The translations under genes were made by a program, and so were the position numbers. Source: Candidatus Woesearchaeota archaeon (GTDB taxonomy: Archaea; Nanobdellota; Nanobdellia; Woesearchaeales; GW2011-AR9). Taken from it: DNA of 64,000 nucleotides. This document shows positions 1,725 through 45,799 of this stretch, one piece after another. The stretch lies in contig JACPIK010000002.1 of NCBI GenBank assembly GCA_016188115.1, positions 1,395,771-1,459,770 of the forward strand, read 5' to 3'. Within the stretch, counting starts at the first letter, position 1. Each line of letters opens with the position of its first letter. The notes beneath the pieces were generated by a model. It saw nothing but the letters and a program-made list of their open reading frames with translations, did not search any database and was not told where the DNA came from.

Positions 1725-4559
1725 ATGAAAAGAAAAGAGGTTTATGCTGTAACAAAACTAGACAGAGTTCTCTTTCTCTGTTTATTACTCTTAACTCTCC
1801 TTTCTATTTCGGGTCTTGCTGTACCCATAAGGGATACAGTTTGTGAATTAGATGGTTCATTGCGTTGTTCTGCTCCTAATAGTGTCCTTGTTGGCTCAGC
1901 TGGAGCAAATCAGCCTCCTCCGTTTGTGCTAGGATATAATAATCAAGCTGTTAGTATTACCAATGCAGCATACCTCACATTTGAGAACCATCCTTTTGAA
2001 AGTCAAACGGGAAATCTTGCATTATGGTTTAAGTTAGATCCAATCATGGAACCAAGTATCACTGCTCCTGTAAAACTGTTAAAGATTTTTGAAACGGGAA
2101 ACAATCAAAATTATCTTGCTGTTCTCTATAAATCAAATGGGGAGATGGTTGTGCAATCAACTCGCAACGATAACCTCAATGTTCCAGCAAATAAACTACA
2201 ATGGAAATACATTGTCCACAAACCTCTTACTGTTGACGAATGGCATCACTTTACTTTTAGTTGGCAGCGCAACCAAGCAGGTATTCCTGATGATGTAAAA
2301 GTATTCATTGATGGTGAAGAACTGCGAAAGAGTAACTTTGTTTTTGAAGACAGTTCTGGTTTGAGAGCAACCTGGCAGCGAGGACATATTGCTAAATTGC
2401 CCTCTTTATTTCCCAATACGCGAGTTATTATTGCTAAAGGCTCTGCATCTTCAGGAAATACGCTCATAGATCAACTTAGTTTTTCACCAGAATATGTTAC
2501 TGCTGTTTGCCCTTATTGCGAAGTACTTGATGATGTTGTTCTCTATCAAAAACCTCTCTTTACAGATAAAGGGACTTATTCAACACTCCTTCCTTCCACT
2601 AAGCCACAACCCTCTGAGATCATCGAAAGCCTCTCTCTCACTGCAACCCCTGGAGAATATGAACCTACTAGTTTTGCTATTTTTACACAAAATGAACCTC
2701 TTAGAGATGTGACTGCCCAAATATCCTCTTTGAGATCTGCAGCAGGGAATTCTATTCCTATTGAGAATATCGATTTACGAGTTGTAAAAGTGTGGACTCG
2801 TGCTGGATTTGGAGCTAATTCTGCCGCAGGTTTTACATTAGGACAATCCAAACTTCAATGGGACGAATTTGGTATTAATGAAAAAGGCATTCTTGTCGCA
2901 GATATGTTGGTGTATGATGATGGTCAGGATCTAAAAGCATTAGAAAGATATAATCCCGATGGAACCTATACTGCTCCTCGCATAGCCACTCAACTTCGAA
3001 CTACTATTTCCGTTGGAGAATCCAAACAATTTTGGCTCACAATTCATGTTCCTCAAGATACTCCTGCTGGTCATTATCAAGGAGTTATCGCACTCCAAAG
3101 CCCATCTCTTGCAACTCCATTAACAATCCCTCTCTCTATAGAAGTTCTTCCATTCACTCTTGTTGAACCAAATCAAGTTCGCTCTATTTATTACCGCAAT
3201 TATCTTGGTCTAGGGGCTCTTCCTTCTGTGGGCGCTCCCGTATTTGAAAAAATTAGTGAAGAACGATATCGTGCTGAATTATCCGATATACGGGCACATG
3301 GTTTTAACGCAGTTCAGTTAAATTCGCAGCCAATGAGTGAAGAAGGGTTACGTCGTTCGCTTGAATTAGCCCGTAATGTTGGTTTTAGAATAGTTGATCA
3401 AACTGTTGCCAAAGGCGGTCGAGGCATGAGTATTGAAAGACAACTCGAACTCACACAACAGGCAGGTTTTGAGAAAATTCTTTATGCGTTTGATGAAAAA
3501 AATGAATATGCTCAAAACACCTTCGCCAACATTCTTGTTAAACTGTATGATTATCATCAAGCGGGCGCAAAAGTTATGAGTTCTTTAATTTGGCAGACTG
3601 CAGTAGAATATGAAAATCCTCAAAGTGTAATGTATGATCTAGAATATCAAAATGCCCCTTTACGAAACGTACGACCTGAAGTTGTAACCACTGGGCCTGA
3701 TTATGCAGTTATTGCTCTTCCAAATGAAGCGCATGAAGGTCGCGGCTTTGAGCGGTATTTAGATATCATCAATGGACGAGACGCACCAAGAATAAATGCA
3801 AAAGAAATGTATTATTGGCAAATAGGGATGCATAAACCATTTTACGCAAGGTATAATACGGGAGTTCTGGCATATTTCTTACGAAATTATATCTATGGTT
3901 TTAAGCCATATGCGTATTCCCATCAAGGCAGTCCCGGTTTTGGATATGGTTCTCCCTATGACACATTTGATAGTGCGTATATGTACGATGAACTAACTGA
4001 AAAAGGAGACGGGTATGTGGCTTCTCAAATGGCAGTCTATCCTTCAGCGCAAGGGCCAATCCCCACATTAGAATGGGAGGCTGTACGCGAGGGAATTGAT
4101 GATCTCAAATATTTAACAACACTCGACAATGCGTTAACTAGCTTAGAACAACAAGACCCTCGTCTCGCATCTCAACTTCGTGCAGAACTCAATACTGCGT
4201 TAGATCCATTTCGCCATCTAAACTCCTGGCGAATTATGTCGGGGGACGATTTTGACCAGTTACGCACAACCATTATCTCTCTTTTACGTCAAATTCCCGA
4301 ACCTATCTTGACTGCTATAGTTGAAGTGGATAATGTTAATGGTGTTCTAACTCAAAACAATAACAATATCATAGATAAAATAACTCTTGTTCAACAAGAT
4401 TCTCTCCAAGAAAATCAGCAAATCAATCTAGATGTTTGTTTGACATATCCTCAACTCATGCAACTTGCATCTCGTCTTGCTCAACAAGATGCACGCGGGG
4501 AAGATTTAGCCCCCATTAAACGAACCATTTTACGCACGTTTAATCTTGTCTGTTCTTAA
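1725..4559 (+). CDS. large secreted protein with an N-terminal LamG/concanavalin-A-like lectin domain
   Basis: 944 aa. N-terminal signal/TM 'VLFLCLLLLTLLSISGLA'. LamG-like block 'LALWFKLDP...WHHFTFSW...VKVFIDGEEL'. Remainder unassigned. Confidence 0.55.
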   Translation: MKRKEVYAVTKLDRVLFLCLLLLTLLSISGLAVPIRDTVCELDGSLRCSAPNSVLVGSAGANQPPPFVLGYNNQAVSITNAAYLTFENHPFESQTGNLALWFKLDPIMEPSITAPVKLLKIFETGNNQNYLAVLYKSNGEMVVQSTRNDNLNVPANKLQWKYIVHKPLTVDEWHHFTFSWQRNQAGIPDDVKVFIDGEELRKSNFVFEDSSGLRATWQRGHIAKLPSLFPNTRVIIAKGSASSGNTLIDQLSFSPEYVTAVCPYCEVLDDVVLYQKPLFTDKGTYSTLLPSTKPQPSEIIESLSLTATPGEYEPTSFAIFTQNEPLRDVTAQISSLRSAAGNSIPIENIDLRVVKVWTRAGFGANSAAGFTLGQSKLQWDEFGINEKGILVADMLVYDDGQDLKALERYNPDGTYTAPRIATQLRTTISVGESKQFWLTIHVPQDTPAGHYQGVIALQSPSLATPLTIPLSIEVLPFTLVEPNQVRSIYYRNYLGLGALPSVGAPVFEKISEERYRAELSDIRAHGFNAVQLNSQPMSEEGLRRSLELARNVGFRIVDQTVAKGGRGMSIERQLELTQQAGFEKILYAFDEKNEYAQNTFANILVKLYDYHQAGAKVMSSLIWQTAVEYENPQSVMYDLEYQNAPLRNVRPEVVTTGPDYAVIALPNEAHEGRGFERYLDIINGRDAPRINAKEMYYWQIGMHKPFYARYNTGVLAYFLRNYIYGFKPYAYSHQGSPGFGYGSPYDTFDSAYMYDELTEKGDGYVASQMAVYPSAQGPIPTLEWEAVREGIDDLKYLTTLDNALTSLEQQDPRLASQLRAELNTALDPFRHLNSWRIMSGDDFDQLRTTIISLLRQIPEPILTAIVEVDNVNGVLTQNNNNIIDKITLVQQDSLQENQQINLDVCLTYPQLMQLASRLAQQDARGEDLAPIKRTILRTFNLVCS

Positions 4560-16615: not shown

Positions 16616-16951
16616 TTATCGACGAGAAAGTGCTGTTACAATTATTGCTTTAAAATTTTGTTCTAATTTTTCTATGTCGTTTAATGTAAATCCCTCTGTA
16701 ATAATCTTACTTTTACCTCTTTGTAAATATAATTCAGCATTGGCAATATCTTGTTGTAATCGAATTAAGTTAGCCAAACCGACTCGTTTACATTCCTGCC
16801 ACAAATTTTTGTATCGATTTTCAACATCAATAAAACTGCATTTTGTACCTCGTAAAGAAATTATTGCTTCAGCAAGACTCACTAACGCAATTTGGATATT
16901 TTTTGGTAATGTACTTATTTGTGCTTTTACTTGAATAATATCTAAAGACAT
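16616..16951 (-). CDS. hypothetical helical protein
   Basis: 111 aa. No clear motif. Confidence 0.3.
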   Translation of the reverse strand: MSLDIIQVKAQISTLPKNIQIALVSLAEAIISLRGTKCSFIDVENRYKNLWQECKRVGLANLIRLQQDIANAELYLQRGKSKIITEGFTLNDIEKLEQNFKAIIVTALSRR

Positions 16952-17052
16952 TTCATTTTTCTAATTTATTTAGGTTATAAAGTTTCTTTGCCTCTCTGTG
17001 GGAGTAAAGCAGAACCAGAAGCCTTTTATCTAACACCTAATCCAATATCAAG

Positions 17053-37323: not shown

Positions 37324-37935
37324 ATGGTTCAATACGAACACGCACGAGTAGCAGTTGATCCTGTAATAATTACGATTCATCAAAATCAGCTTAAAGTATT
37401 TCTTGTAAAACGTGAAAAAGAACCTTTTAAAGGAAAGTATGAACTTCCAGGCGGACTTTTACAACCAACAGAGAAAGCTGAAGATACAGTTATTCGAAAA
37501 TTGCGCGAACTAACTAGCTATAAAAATCCAATATTAACACAATTTCATACATTTACCGATCCTGAACGTGATGTGCGTGAGCGTACAATTTCCATTGGTT
37601 TTATTTGTCTTCTTGAACAAAGCACTATTCCTAATATTACTGAATTTCATCTAATAAAAAATTTGCCTTCTTTAGCGTTTGATCACAAAGAGATGATTCA
37701 AAAAGCTTTGGAATTTCTCAAATTAAATATTTCTCCCGCACTCCTAAAACACATTCTTCCTCCTTTTTTTGCTCTTAATTCTCTTCAGCTAGTTTATGAA
37801 CTTATTGAACAGCAATCATATGATAATAGGAATTTTCGAAAGAGAATGATTGCAGCTGAAATTGTAGAAGAAACAGATAAAATAGAAACTGACGTGTCAC
37901 ACCGTCCTGCGAAGTTATTTCGATTTAAAGTGTAA
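37324..37935 (+). CDS. NUDIX-domain protein with a C-terminal extension (NrtR-like?)
   Basis: Degenerate Nudix box 'GKYELPGGLLQPTEKAEDTVIRKLRELTS' plus an ~80-aa C-terminal helical region. Confidence 0.5.
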   Translation: MVQYEHARVAVDPVIITIHQNQLKVFLVKREKEPFKGKYELPGGLLQPTEKAEDTVIRKLRELTSYKNPILTQFHTFTDPERDVRERTISIGFICLLEQSTIPNITEFHLIKNLPSLAFDHKEMIQKALEFLKLNISPALLKHILPPFFALNSLQLVYELIEQQSYDNRNFRKRMIAAEIVEETDKIETDVSHRPAKLFRFKV

Positions 37936-38314
37936 TTGTTAAATTTCTTTTAATCCGCCAAGGATATATCAAAGATCCCACATATACCTCCGGACCACCA
38001 TATTGATCTGAAGTAATATCAACCAGAAGTAGATTATCTAATAGAAGAAAAGTATGGTTATATTCTCTGTATCTTCCCTGAACTATCTTTCCTCCTAATT
38101 TCTTCTGCAAATATACTGTTGCTAATCCACAATTAAGTGTAGGAAATAATTCTTGTGCTCTGAGAAGAAATAACTCAATATCTTCAATGCAGGTATATTG
38201 TTGGTATAAATCACGTAATTCATTAGAATTAATGGTGCCCTGCTCAAAGTCTTTACGAACCGTCAAAGCAACTTTTCTAACTCTTTCAAGATCCATGAAA
38301 GTAATTTGGCTCAC
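37925..38314 (-). CDS. hypothetical protein
   Basis: 129 aa. No motif. Confidence 0.3.
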   Translation of the reverse strand: MSQITFMDLERVRKVALTVRKDFEQGTINSNELRDLYQQYTCIEDIELFLLRAQELFPTLNCGLATVYLQKKLGGKIVQGRYREYNHTFLLLDNLLLVDITSDQYGGPEVYVGSLIYPWRIKRNLTITL

Positions 38315-38357
38315 TTAGATATAAAATTTTATAAACAGCTCTAAAAACAACCCTCTT

Positions 38358-38540
38358 GACGCCAGTGTCGCATAACTCGGAAGCAGCAAACTGCTGAGGA
38401 ATATTGCGCAGGTCTTGAAAGAACTATCCAACATAACCTGTCCCTCTGGGATTGTCGGTTCAAAACAACCTTTTAGAAAAAAGCTTGACCAAAACAAGCC
38501 TAACTGGTTATGAAAGTCCGGCCACTGGCGCTCATTTTCT
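38358..38540 (+). ncRNA. candidate ~180-nt structured ncRNA, identity unresolved
   Basis: TATA-like 'ttttataaa' (38327-35) about 25 bp upstream. 'cgccagtg' (38360-67) is complementary to 'cactggcg' (38523-30). Oligo-T run at 38535. Internal hairpin 'agcagcaaactgct'. Local GC is above the surroundings. Confidence 0.35.
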
Positions 38541-38578
38541 TAATTTCTACGCAAGAGTTATAAATACGCCCCCTCCCG

Positions 38579-38800
38579 GTGATTAAAATGTCTCAATACA
38601 TTGAGCTCAATGACTTCCTAAAGATCAACAATGTTGCATCAACAGGAGGACAAGTGAAAATCATCATCCGCTCTGGCGTTGTTAAACTCAATGGTGTTAT
38701 TGAAACGCAAAATCGCAAAAAACTCGTTGTTGGCGATAAAATTACAGTTGAGAACAAAATATTCATCGTCGACCAAAGTGTCGTACGAGAACACCCATAG
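38579..38800 (+). CDS. S4-domain RNA-binding protein
   Basis: 'IIRSGVVKLNGVIETQNRKKLVVGDKITV' is the S4 fold signature. Confidence 0.55.
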   Translation: MIKMSQYIELNDFLKINNVASTGGQVKIIIRSGVVKLNGVIETQNRKKLVVGDKITVENKIFIVDQSVVREHP

Positions 38801-40365: not shown

Positions 40366-40646
40366 TCGAGTAGATCATGCACACTCACAACGGCGCTGCG
40401 CACTTTATCTCCTTTATTACAATAAGGGCAACTAGGAGTATAAGATTTAAACTTGTAGTGGCAACGGTCGCAATTATAGCTAATTTTGCCTTCTGCTTGT
40501 TTTTGGGCACTGCGTTCTTGAGTTTTTTTGTGGCAACCATAACACACATATTTCTTTTCTTTACCTGGAAGAAGTAATGCTGATGCTGGTTCAACCATAG
40601 TGCCACACATAGAACATTCAATTGGAACTCGTAAGATACCTGTCAT
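40362..40646 (-). CDS. zinc-ribbon protein
   Basis: 'CSMCG...CYGCH...CDRCH...CPYC'. Confidence 0.4.
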   Translation of the reverse strand: MTGILRVPIECSMCGTMVEPASALLLPGKEKKYVCYGCHKKTQERSAQKQAEGKISYNCDRCHYKFKSYTPSCPYCNKGDKVRSAVVSVHDLLE

Positions 40647-40743
40647 AAAATTTTGGCACCAACACTACTATAAAAATCTTGTGTATAAATTTATTTTATG
40701 CTCGCTAAACTTTATATACGCGGGGTCTTTTTTACCCTATACC

Positions 40744-41997
40744 GTGGATACAAAATCTATATTAAAGAACATACAACCTACTACCTCACAGCGTAAACTC
40801 TTCTATGAAACTGCATCCATTGTTTGTGATAAAATAAACGCCGTTAGTCCCTCTGCTCATGCCAGATTAGGGGGAAGTGGTGCGAAAGATACTTGGCTTG
40901 CAACCAGCGCAGATATTGACATCTTTGTAGCGTTTCCCTACGAACAATATCATGAAAAATCAGCAGTTCTCTCAGACTTAGTAGAAAAGTCCCTTCATAA
41001 ATCATTTCCTGATATCCCTATCCAACGTCTCCATGGTAGTCGTGACTATTTTCAATTTCAATATCACCATTACCTGATTGAAGTTGTTCCCATTATAGAA
41101 ATCACTAAAGCATCTCAAGCCTGTAACATCACAGATGTATCGCCCCTGCATGTAGCATGGGTTAAAGATCAGGGTAAAAATCTTGTTGATGATATTCGTC
41201 TTGCCAAACAGTTCTGCAAAGCGCAACGAGTCTATGGCGCAGAATCTTATATTGGGGGTGTAAGTGGTTATGTTGTTGAGATCCTCGTCATTCATTATGG
41301 TTCATTCGAAAAATTTGTTCAAGCTGTCACCAAATGGAAAGAGGGACAAGTAATTGATCCCACTCAATTCTACGCCAAGGGTATGGCGCGATTTAATCTA
41401 AACTCTTCCAAAATGCGTTGTCCTCTCATTGTAATTGATCCAGTAGATAAGAATCGTAATGCTGCCGCAGCGCTCAACATGTCACGTTGGCAGCGTTTAA
41501 AAGTGGCAGCAACTAAATATCTCAAAAATCCAGATACTTCATTCTTTACTCTATTTCCTTTCTCAGTTGATTCTCTCAAAATCAAAGCAGGAAAAAATAA
41601 ACTGCTTTGTTTCCATGTGATTCCGTTAGAAGGTAAAATTGATGTAGTTGGCGCAAAAATGATGAAAACGCATGAATATATTGCGCAACATCTTGAACCA
41701 TTTGGGATCGTTGAAACCGATTGGGAATGGTCTAATGGGAAGAATGCATTATTTTATTTTATTCTCAAAAAAAATAAACAACCTGCAACTCAACGTATCC
41801 AAGGTCCACCTACACACATGAAAGAAGCAGCTACCGCATTTTGCGCTAAACATAAAGAGAATGTAGAAGAAGATGGCAAACTTGTTGCTCACATTGCAGT
41901 TCGTTATCCTCTTCTTGAAGATCAAATCAAAGTACTTCTCGAAAGTGCATATGTTGCTTCGCGTATTAACGGCGTTGAAGATTTGAAGATAGTCTAG
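40744..41997 (+). CDS. cca: class I (archaeal) CCA-adding tRNA nucleotidyltransferase
   Basis: 'LGGSGAKDTWLATSADIDIFVAF' is the pol-beta NT motif. GTG start chosen at 40744, since the ATG at 40600 would overlap the convergent zinc-ribbon gene. Confidence 0.75.
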   Translation: MDTKSILKNIQPTTSQRKLFYETASIVCDKINAVSPSAHARLGGSGAKDTWLATSADIDIFVAFPYEQYHEKSAVLSDLVEKSLHKSFPDIPIQRLHGSRDYFQFQYHHYLIEVVPIIEITKASQACNITDVSPLHVAWVKDQGKNLVDDIRLAKQFCKAQRVYGAESYIGGVSGYVVEILVIHYGSFEKFVQAVTKWKEGQVIDPTQFYAKGMARFNLNSSKMRCPLIVIDPVDKNRNAAAALNMSRWQRLKVAATKYLKNPDTSFFTLFPFSVDSLKIKAGKNKLLCFHVIPLEGKIDVVGAKMMKTHEYIAQHLEPFGIVETDWEWSNGKNALFYFILKKNKQPATQRIQGPPTHMKEAATAFCAKHKENVEEDGKLVAHIAVRYPLLEDQIKVLLESAYVASRINGVEDLKIV

Positions 41998-45574: not shown

Positions 45575-45642
45575 ACAAGAAAGATTTCCTTTTAATTTAT
45601 ATAATTATAGAAAGACATAATCTATTGCTCATGGAAGAAAAG

Positions 45643-45799
45643 CGCCCCCGCGCGGATTTGAACCGCGGTTCCAAGCTTTTTGTATCAAGAAACTCTAAAC
45701 ATGAGTTTTCTTACACCGCAAGCTCGTGTCCTATTTGCTTCAACTTTTGATCAAACTTTTAGCTTGCCTAAAAGGTTGTCCAAGCTAGACTACGAGGGC
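45643..45799 (-). tRNA. tRNA-Arg (anticodon GCG) with two introns: one in the D-loop and one canonical 37/38 intron
   Basis: Minus-strand read. Acceptor GCCCTCG pairs with CGGGGGC. D-stem GTCT/GGAC. Anticodon arm CGAGC-TTGCGG|A-GCTTG. T-arm CGCGG-TTCAAAT-CCGCG, discriminator G. Removing about 45 nt (plus 45735-45779) and 38 nt (plus 45678-45715) gives a ~74-nt cloverleaf. The 37/38 intron contains a helix AAGAAAC/GTTTCTT. Confidence 0.7.

Follow-up and report, generated by a model that had tools for sequence, protein, structure and literature searches.

Archaeal tRNA genes can carry non-canonical and multiple introns, with up to three in a single gene, as described for Thermoproteales, N. equitans, M. 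kandleri, Korarchaeum, and ARMAN-1/2 (PMC4033280, PMC8450103). The multi-intron tRNAs of Thermoproteales were found with SPLITS/SPLITSX together with tRNAscan-SE (Sugahara et al. 2006-2008, as summarized in PMC4033280 and PMC8450103). Within the DPANN superphylum, a survey by Kaneta et al. that included one Woesearchaeota genome linked splicing endonucleases (EndAs) with an L3 loop to increased disruption of tRNA genes, and the incomplete tRNA sets of DPANN genomes indicated that undetected disrupted genes probably remain (PMC5829648). Broad-specificity EndAs are known from DPANN: an epsilon2 enzyme in ARMAN-1/2 (PMC3239211) and alpha4 enzymes with an L3 loop in several other lineages (PMC5829648). 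Here, we analyze a stretch of 64,000 nucleotides (nt) from a Candidatus Woesearchaeota archaeon (contig JACPIK010000002.1, positions 1,395,771 to 1,459,770; hereafter the window), in which a structured noncoding RNA (ncRNA) of about 180 nt, with its own promoter and terminator, had been predicted in an intergenic gap. We find that the locus is an undetected disrupted DPANN tRNA gene and not a new kind of RNA. Positions 38361-38530 of the plus strand are very probably a functional tRNA-Ser(UGA) gene with three protein-spliced introns of the bulge-helix-bulge (BHB) type, 21, 15, and 52 nt long.

The gene shares several characteristics with the crenarchaeal multi-intron tRNAs of Thermoproteales. 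Both have up to three short introns, located at the canonical site (37/38) and at non-canonical sites in the D- and T-regions, with strict or relaxed BHB motifs. Both are missed by standard tRNA finders, and the reported maximum of three introns equals the count in the window gene. However, the host here is a mesophilic DPANN archaeon with a GC content of ~38%, not a hyperthermophilic crenarchaeon, and the intron sequences are unrelated. The endonuclease expected here would also differ from the crenarchaeal (alpha-beta)2 enzyme with its L1 loop (PMC5829648). Compared with the disrupted tRNAs already known from DPANN, the gene belongs to the same superphylum and has the same kind of non-canonical and multiple introns, for which a link to an EndA that tolerates relaxed BHB motifs is likewise proposed. 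In contrast to those cases, the gene, its intron positions, and its intron family are undescribed in the DPANN literature examined.

The gene was delimited by in silico splicing and by comparison with one orthologous locus (L011, described below). Its parts are as follows:
38327-38335, plus strand: TATA-like putative promoter box ttttataaa, by direct reading, 25 nt 5' of tRNA position 1
38361-38530, plus strand: the whole tRNA-Ser(UGA) gene, from G1 to the discriminator G73, with CCA not encoded
38361-38380, plus strand: exon 1, with the acceptor 5' strand, U8, the D-stem 5' strand, and the D-loop up to G18 G19; a base-for-base match to L011 1948-1967
38381-38401, plus strand: intron 1, 21 nt, in the D-loop after G19, AAGCAGCAAACUGCUGAGGAA, holding an AGCAG-CAAA-CUGCU hairpin; absent from L011
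38402-38419, plus strand: exon 2, with the remaining D-arm, the anticodon stem 5' strand, and loop nucleotides C32 U33 U34 G35 A36 A37
38420-38434, plus strand: intron 2, 15 nt, at the canonical 37/38 position, AGAACUAUCCAACAU; found by ARAGORN -i and also present in L011
38435-38464, plus strand: exon 3, with A38, the anticodon stem 3' strand, the variable arm UCCC-UCU-GGGA, the T-stem 5' strand, and T-loop U54-A59
38465-38516, plus strand: intron 3, 52 nt, in the T-loop at 59/60, ACAACCUUUUAG...GGUUAUGAAAG; absent from L011 and from a further relative (L095)
38517-38530, plus strand: exon 4, with U60, the T-stem 3' strand, the acceptor 3' strand, and the discriminator G73; acceptor pairs covary in relatives
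38535-38548, plus strand: T-run (TTTT, 38535-38538) and T-rich trailer, by direct reading; a likely termination signal

Deleting all three inserts leaves an 82-nt class II sequence, which ARAGORN calls tRNA-Ser(tga). When only the D- and T-loop inserts are deleted, ARAGORN with its intron option (-i) calls tRNA-Ser(tga) with a 15-nt intron in the anticodon loop. At minimum free energy (MFE), the spliced 82 nt fold into a cloverleaf (-30.9 kcal/mol) whose variable arm is long. ARAGORN draws the full cloverleaf: a 7-bp acceptor stem, a D-stem, a 5-bp anticodon stem with a 7-nt loop, and a 5-bp T-stem with a 7-nt loop. The anticodon UGA lies within the 7-nt loop after splicing. Nucleotides involved in tertiary interactions are kept, namely U8, A14, G18 G19, C32 U33, and the T-loop UUCAAAU. 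The long variable arm, the serine anticodon, and G73 are identity elements for archaeal seryl-tRNA synthetase; all three are present in the spliced sequence, where the variable arm has 13 nt and a 4-bp stem.

Comparative evidence comes from the ortholog. We searched for relatives of the locus via homologs of the downstream 179-amino acid J-domain (DnaJ) protein, which yielded 73 loci, nearly all from Woesearchaeota or Nanoarchaeota. An nhmmer search of these loci with the candidate returned L011 as the sole match; its J-domain protein is 80% identical to that of the window. Homologs of the upstream YunG-like gene showed no synteny with the RNA and contained no match to it. L011 belongs to the Woesearchaeota metagenome-assembled genome nzgw60 (JAHFSP010000002.1), with the tRNA at 1948-2044. 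This copy equals the candidate minus the 21- and 52-nt blocks, with only the 15-nt intron retained. Its stems and loops are those of a complete tRNA: acceptor GCCAGCG/CGCUGGC, a D-arm with G18 G19, anticodon stem CAGGU/ACCUG, a loop CUUGAA followed by 15 extra nt, variable arm UCCC-UCU-GGGA, T-arm GUCGG-UUCAAAU-CCGGC, and G73. The segment matches the Rfam tRNA model (RF00005) with 43.8 bits against a gathering threshold of 29 (E 2.4e-8), and in ARAGORN -i it comes out as tRNA-Ser(tga) carrying an intron of 15 nt.

Exact removal of intron 1 from the window gene restores the L011-type D-loop UAAYUCGGUAU, and exact removal of intron 3 restores GUCGG-UUCAAAU-CCGGC. The exons of the two genes are identical at 79 of 82 positions, and two of the three differences form a compensatory pair at 6:67 (U-A versus C-G). 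The shared canonical intron differs at 3 of its 15 nucleotides, all within the small inner hairpin (nt 4-6). The promoter block aaaattttataaacag and its spacing are also kept upstream of the L011 tRNA, and the same genes (PEP-utilizer, YunG-like, S4_2, and DnaJ) lie nearby. In contrast, L011 is without the D-loop and T-loop introns, and its YunG-like gene (2202-2591, plus strand) lies downstream of the tRNA on the same strand; in the window, this gene lies upstream on the opposite strand (37925-38296, minus strand). The placement of the YunG-like gene reflects a small inversion or rearrangement bordered by the tRNA gene. With one versus three introns at 79/82 exon identity, the pair captures intron gain or loss between close relatives.

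The ortholog also explains the features that first drew attention to the locus. The gap between mechanically called open reading frames (ORFs) is indeed 264 bp (38315-38578), or ~290 bp between the divergent ATG starts of the YunG-like gene (38296, minus strand) and the S4_2-domain gene (38588, plus strand). The TATA-like box was correctly reported, 24-25 nt 5' of a GC-richer segment, as was the AGCAG-CAAA-CTGCT hairpin (38383-38396). The first 8 nt of that segment (cgccagtg, 38360-38367) are the exact complement of the last 8 nt before the T-run (cactggcg, 38523-38530). Given ~40,000 position pairs at a probability of 4^-8 each in a 290-bp stretch, we estimate that ~0.6 exact 8-bp inverted repeats are expected by chance per ~290 bp, so this complementarity alone proves nothing. 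The original prediction had made the reality of the RNA depend on conservation and covariation of this terminal helix; both are found, with the acceptor helix conserved among relatives and pair 6:67 occurring as U-A, C-G, or G-C, which favors a real RNA. The terminal helix corresponds to the 7-bp acceptor stem, extended by an incidental C(-1):G73 pair. Nucleotide -1 is always a pyrimidine (C or U) that can pair with G73, in the window (38360), in L011 (1947), and in the five further relatives L084, L087, L088, L090, and L095. Since the pyrimidine at -1 pairs with G73, eight complementary bases had been counted rather than seven. The stable hairpin inside the segment belongs to the D-loop intron, where it forms the inner helix.

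Thus, part of the original prediction stands: there is a real RNA gene on the plus strand, predicted to be transcribed independently, with paired ends, a TATA-like box upstream that L011 shares, and a T-run behind it. The claim that it encodes a new kind of ncRNA of ~180 nt does not, since the predicted transcript is the precursor of tRNA-Ser(UGA). A novel structured RNA of ~170-180 nt, functioning at full length and perhaps representing a reduced signal recognition particle (SRP) RNA or RNase P RNA, could draw on the stability of the fold: the 171-nt segment folds at -52.1 kcal/mol (z = -3.55), a value equaled by none of 200 shuffles. The locus also has its own promoter- and terminator-like signals, as well as short motifs that recall SRP helix 8 and conserved region I (CR-I) of RNase P. 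However, these motifs, GGAAGCAGC at 38379-38387 and GAAAGTCCGG at 38512-38521, both straddle exon-intron junctions. GGAAGCAGC is the exon 1/intron 1 junction, and GAAAGUCCGG is the intron 3/exon 4 junction. L011, a bona fide tRNA, is without 73 of the 170 nt, among them the AGCAG hairpin and the part of each motif that lies in an intron. What is conserved coincides exactly with the tRNA exons. The cloverleaf stems, together with the intron hairpins, account for the high stability of the fold. The proposed Rfam scan for SRP, RNase P, and other families yielded nothing credible: across the whole window, gathering thresholds left no match and a cutoff of E <= 5 brought up no tRNA, SRP, or RNase P, and the 501-nt region 38200-38700 gave only noise at E <= 10 (sR11, sR41, and two long noncoding RNA fragments, all with E > 5). 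We therefore regard a full-length novel ncRNA as practically negligible in probability.

Narrower readings of the same features were also discarded. Taking GUCGG/CCGGC for P4 and GAAAGUCCGG for CR-I or CR-V would give a minimal RNase P; this reading was dropped because the helix in question is the T-stem. Kink-turn, C/D-box, and H/ACA readings of the AGCAG hairpin region fail, with no C/C' box (RUGAUGA) and no H/ACA architecture recognizable by eye, and with the hairpin missing in the ortholog. A gene on the minus strand was considered, as the reverse complement of the segment folds nearly as well (z = -3.21) and a TATA-like box lies on that side, but the tRNA can be read on the plus strand only. 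With such similar folds, the strand cannot be set by folding; the homologous loci settle both the reality of the RNA gene and its strand. The whole-window scan at E <= 5 yielded only a weak match to the bacterial S15 leader, away from the locus (16917-17011, minus strand; 22 bits against a gathering threshold of 39.5, E 0.82). This match, which is probably noise, overlaps the intergenic gap that precedes a helicase gene as well as the 5' end of an ORF on the minus strand.

The tRNA-Ser(UGA) gene has further relatives. An exact 20-mer from exon 3, scanned against metagenome contigs, was found at 12 loci. Eight of these loci hold tRNA-Ser genes with the variable and T arms in common, and ARAGORN calls every spliced form tRNA-Ser. 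The other four (L085, L086, L089, and L091) have no recognizable tRNA near the 20-mer and were set aside as chance matches or unresolved. The eight genes and their introns are as follows:
L095: anticodon UGA; one canonical intron of 85 nt, without D- and T-loop introns
L090, 1032-1218, plus strand: anticodon UGA; introns of 37, 34, and 34 nt in the D-loop, the anticodon loop, and the T-loop (59/60)
L088, 3220-3363, plus strand: anticodon CGA; D-loop and canonical introns
L084, 555-735, plus strand: anticodon CGA; three inserts, including a 72-nt intron at 59/60
L087, L092, L093, and L094: anticodon GCU; one canonical intron each

Our hand parsing of L084, which is tentative, puts an insert of 13 nt within the anticodon stem (30/31), an intron of 14 nt at the canonical site, and the 72-nt intron in the T-loop. 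Exon 3 is identical in the window, L011, L090, and L095. The three introns of L090 occupy the loops that are interrupted in the window gene but are unrelated to the introns there. The T-loop introns of the window, L084, and L090 have no evident sequence similarity beyond the junction nucleotides, yet all three keep a central helix (U)UCA/UGA(A/U) with 3-nt bulges, and L090 adds a perfect 9-bp inner helix.

We find covariation among the related genes. In an ungapped alignment of seven distinct spliced tRNA-Ser sequences, all 168 cells of the 24 cloverleaf pairs are paired (100%), and six pairs have changed on both sides. None of 500 shuffles reaches these values, and slid controls pair at only 29-47%. 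A more distant tRNA-Ser(UGA), L052, for which pair counts were scripted with a hand-placed gap, shows further compensatory changes in the acceptor and T stems.

Two side observations concern the same set of relatives. L088 tRNA-Ser(CGA) and L090 tRNA-Ser(UGA), from the same metagenome series, have an identical 37-nt D-loop intron and identical flanking exon sequence; this intron fits the BHB motif best at 20/21, one nucleotide off the D-loop intron of the window. This sharing suggests that a gene was duplicated or converted, or that the intron passed from one tRNA-Ser gene to another. Upstream of the tRNA-Ser(GCU) genes in L092 (about 2350-2300, minus strand), L087, L093, and L094, fragments such as GCCATGGTCGCATA... 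and ...CTGGTCGCGACCTG resemble the 5' parts of tRNAs and may be remnants of a neighboring or duplicated tRNA gene.

Archaeal introns of this type are recognized by their junction geometry. On each strand, read 5' to 3', an outer helix (h) is followed by a 4-nt strand of the central helix (H) and a 3-nt bulge that is cut after its second nucleotide, with an inner helix (h') beyond. This geometry is standard in Archaea and agrees with position 37/38. We tabulated every junction of the window gene against it:
T-loop intron, 59/60: h is the T-stem (5/5 pairs); H is UUCA/UGAA (4/4); bulges AA|A and AG|U; h' is AACC/GGUU after one mismatch; near canonical
Anticodon-loop intron, 37/38: h 5/5; H 3/4; two 3-nt bulges; h' is a 2-bp inner hairpin; relaxed
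D-loop intron, after G19: h is the D-stem after two unpaired positions; H 3/4, with an A.G mismatch; h' is AGCAG/CUGCU; HBh'-like

The motif is therefore strict for one intron and relaxed for two. At the 5' site of the D-loop intron, CUC/GAG and AGCAG/CUGCU enclose a clean bulge of 3 nt (GG|A), and the cuts that the geometry predicts in the D-loop give exactly the D-loop of L011. The unconstrained MFE structure of the precursor (-52.1 kcal/mol) already holds every cloverleaf stem, with the introns as side helices; a hand-built cloverleaf-plus-BHB structure of the 170-nt precursor scores -44.9 kcal/mol.

Junctions that match BHB geometry also bear on whether the inserts might instead be self-splicing group I or group II introns, or insertion elements. 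Precedents can be cited, as group I introns are known in Woesearchaeota rRNA genes (PMC6125680) and in Patescibacteria tRNA genes (PMC13011429). However, inserts of 15, 21, and 52 nt are far below the size of a group I or II ribozyme core, Rfam finds no intron family in them, and they have neither terminal repeats nor ORFs. A self-splicing or inserted origin is thus exceedingly improbable.

Several observations weigh against a functional tRNA-Ser(UGA) gene. ARAGORN in default mode detects no tRNA in the 64-kb window (nor in L011), and with -i it still misses the serine gene. The Rfam tRNA model gives no match to the unspliced window, either at the gathering threshold or at E <= 5-10. The 3' site of the D-loop intron is relaxed, with the A.G mismatch in H and a 2x2 internal loop before the D-stem, and only three of four pairs form in H of the anticodon-loop intron. 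Where the bases next to a junction repeat (A|A at 37/38 and 59/60), the splice point can be placed only to within one nucleotide. Neither EndA nor RtcB appears in the gene lists, which cover most of the 64-kb window. Finally, the hunt for another tRNA-Ser(UGA) covered 64 kb of a 1.47-Mb genome. The Rfam miss is expected, given that 73 nt of extra inserts lie in two loops of the unspliced sequence. Since the unspliced gene goes unseen by both ARAGORN and Rfam, the identification rests on comparison and in silico splicing. The relaxed motifs of the D-loop and anticodon-loop introns would require a broad-specificity endonuclease.

The same observations could indicate a pseudogene, that is, a one-intron tRNA-Ser gene inactivated by 21- and 52-nt insertions that are not removed, with another copy doing the decoding. 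The blindness of standard detectors to the gene, a D-loop insert with only a relaxed 3' splice motif, and the limited extent of the hunt for a second copy are all compatible with inactivation. However, the exons have remained intact, with standard pairing at all 24 cloverleaf pairs and with U8, A14, G18 G19, U33, UUCAAAU, and G73 retained. Exon identity to L011 (79/82) includes the compensatory double change in the acceptor stem, and the promoter spacing is conserved. Both extra inserts lie where a 4-bp helix with 3-nt bulges can form, and their exact removal restores the loops of the ortholog. Independent introns also occur in the D-loop and at this T-loop site of other Woesearchaeota tRNA-Ser genes. 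Inserts placed at such motifs, together with independent introns in relatives, point to spliceable introns and not random disruption. Nor is the three-intron structure an assembly artifact: the window sequence recurs in independent assemblies of three sequencing runs, and the locus is identical in two of them (SRR12113422 and SRR12113421). We thus consider a pseudogene quite unlikely, and a functional tRNA-Ser(UGA) gene by far the better explanation.

We propose a processing pathway for this tRNA-Ser(UGA) gene, in which transcription, cleavage, ligation, and aminoacylation are all predicted from the sequence. Transcription would start from the TATA box ~25 nt upstream, presumed to act as promoter, and would terminate at the T-run, which is likely an archaeal termination signal; T-runs also occur 3' of the related tRNA-Ser genes in L084, L087, L088, L090, and L095. 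In the folded precursor, the cloverleaf stems would form and each intron would project as a helix, with each pair of splice sites in 3-nt bulges flanking a 4-bp helix. EndA, the archaeal splicing endonuclease, would cut after the second bulge nucleotide at six sites, and an RtcB-type ligase would join the four exons. The ends would then be trimmed, CCA would be added, possibly by the product of the class I CCA-adding enzyme gene 2 kb downstream, and the 82-nt class II tRNA would be charged with serine.

Some further observations concern the ends of this transcript. As the TATA box ends 25 nt upstream of the tRNA, the 5' leader may be only 0-3 nt. The stretch at the TATA box is AT-rich and palindromic and could act for the divergent gene on the minus strand (start at 38296) as well. 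The CCA-adding enzyme encoded at 40600-41997 (plus strand) is of the class I (archaeal) type (PF09249), and neither of the two hidden tRNA genes in the window (the second is described below) encodes CCA. Other nearby genes are likewise archaeal (aCPSF1, a proteasome subunit, L44e, S27e, Nop10, and eIF2-alpha), in keeping with a DPANN host. The YunG-like protein is identical to HYV86_07715 of Candidatus Woesearchaeota archaeon.

The window contains a second hidden gene, a tRNA-Arg(GCG) with two introns, which we read by hand at 45643-45799 on the minus strand. Default ARAGORN and Rfam do not see it, and ARAGORN -i miscalls it as Cys(aca) (45642-45799, minus strand). Its introns are as follows:
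45735-45779, minus strand: D-loop intron, 45 nt, after G19, with a canonical hBHBh' motif (h 4/5; H GCUU/AAGC, 4/4; h' CAAC/GUUG)
45678-45715, minus strand: 37/38 intron, 38 nt

The spliced sequence of 75 nt is called tRNA-Arg(gcg) by ARAGORN. In a structural scan of the window for tRNA-like combinations of acceptor and T-arm, only the serine and arginine genes were convincing.

We find that one intron of each gene is related to the other. The D-loop intron of tRNA-Arg begins with ACAACCUUUUAG, as does the T-loop intron of tRNA-Ser (38465-38516, plus strand). The 12-mer ACAACCTTTTAG opens both introns and has only these two copies in the window. The two introns align further in the block AAAAGYUUGAYCAAAA. 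A local alignment of the two scores 34, whereas the best of 5000 shuffles scores 27. Thus, the introns are homologous, despite their different positions in different tRNAs, which suggests that an intron was duplicated or transposed from one tRNA gene and position to another. In Thermoproteales, the occurrence of similar introns at differing sites of different tRNAs has been interpreted as intron transposition (Fujishima et al. 2010, as summarized in PMC4090602). The serine and arginine introns resemble that case in their identical 12-mer start and further shared blocks. They differ from it in that they are one pair only, in 64 kb, and from a different phylum.

It is possible, though we offer it tentatively and think it somewhat doubtful, that these introns belong to a proliferating BHB family that moves between unrelated tRNA gene positions in this Woesearchaeota lineage. 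If so, a sizeable share of the tRNA set would be invisible to routine annotation, and some of the "missing tRNAs" of DPANN genomes would be detection failures and not gene losses. The EndA of the lineage would also have to accept relaxed motifs in the D- and T-loops.

Here, we add a tRNA with three introns, the known maximum, in Woesearchaeota. These findings leave the established picture of archaeal tRNA splicing unchanged. Two tRNA genes within 64 kb are invisible to ARAGORN and to the Rfam tRNA model. A structured RNA that lies between genes and has paired ends should, in this lineage, be tested first as a disrupted tRNA. The homologous introns at different tRNA positions provide material on the spread of BHB introns and its co-evolution with EndA specificity. 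The tRNA complements of Woesearchaeota are probably under-counted, which bears on claims of a reduced translation machinery in DPANN.

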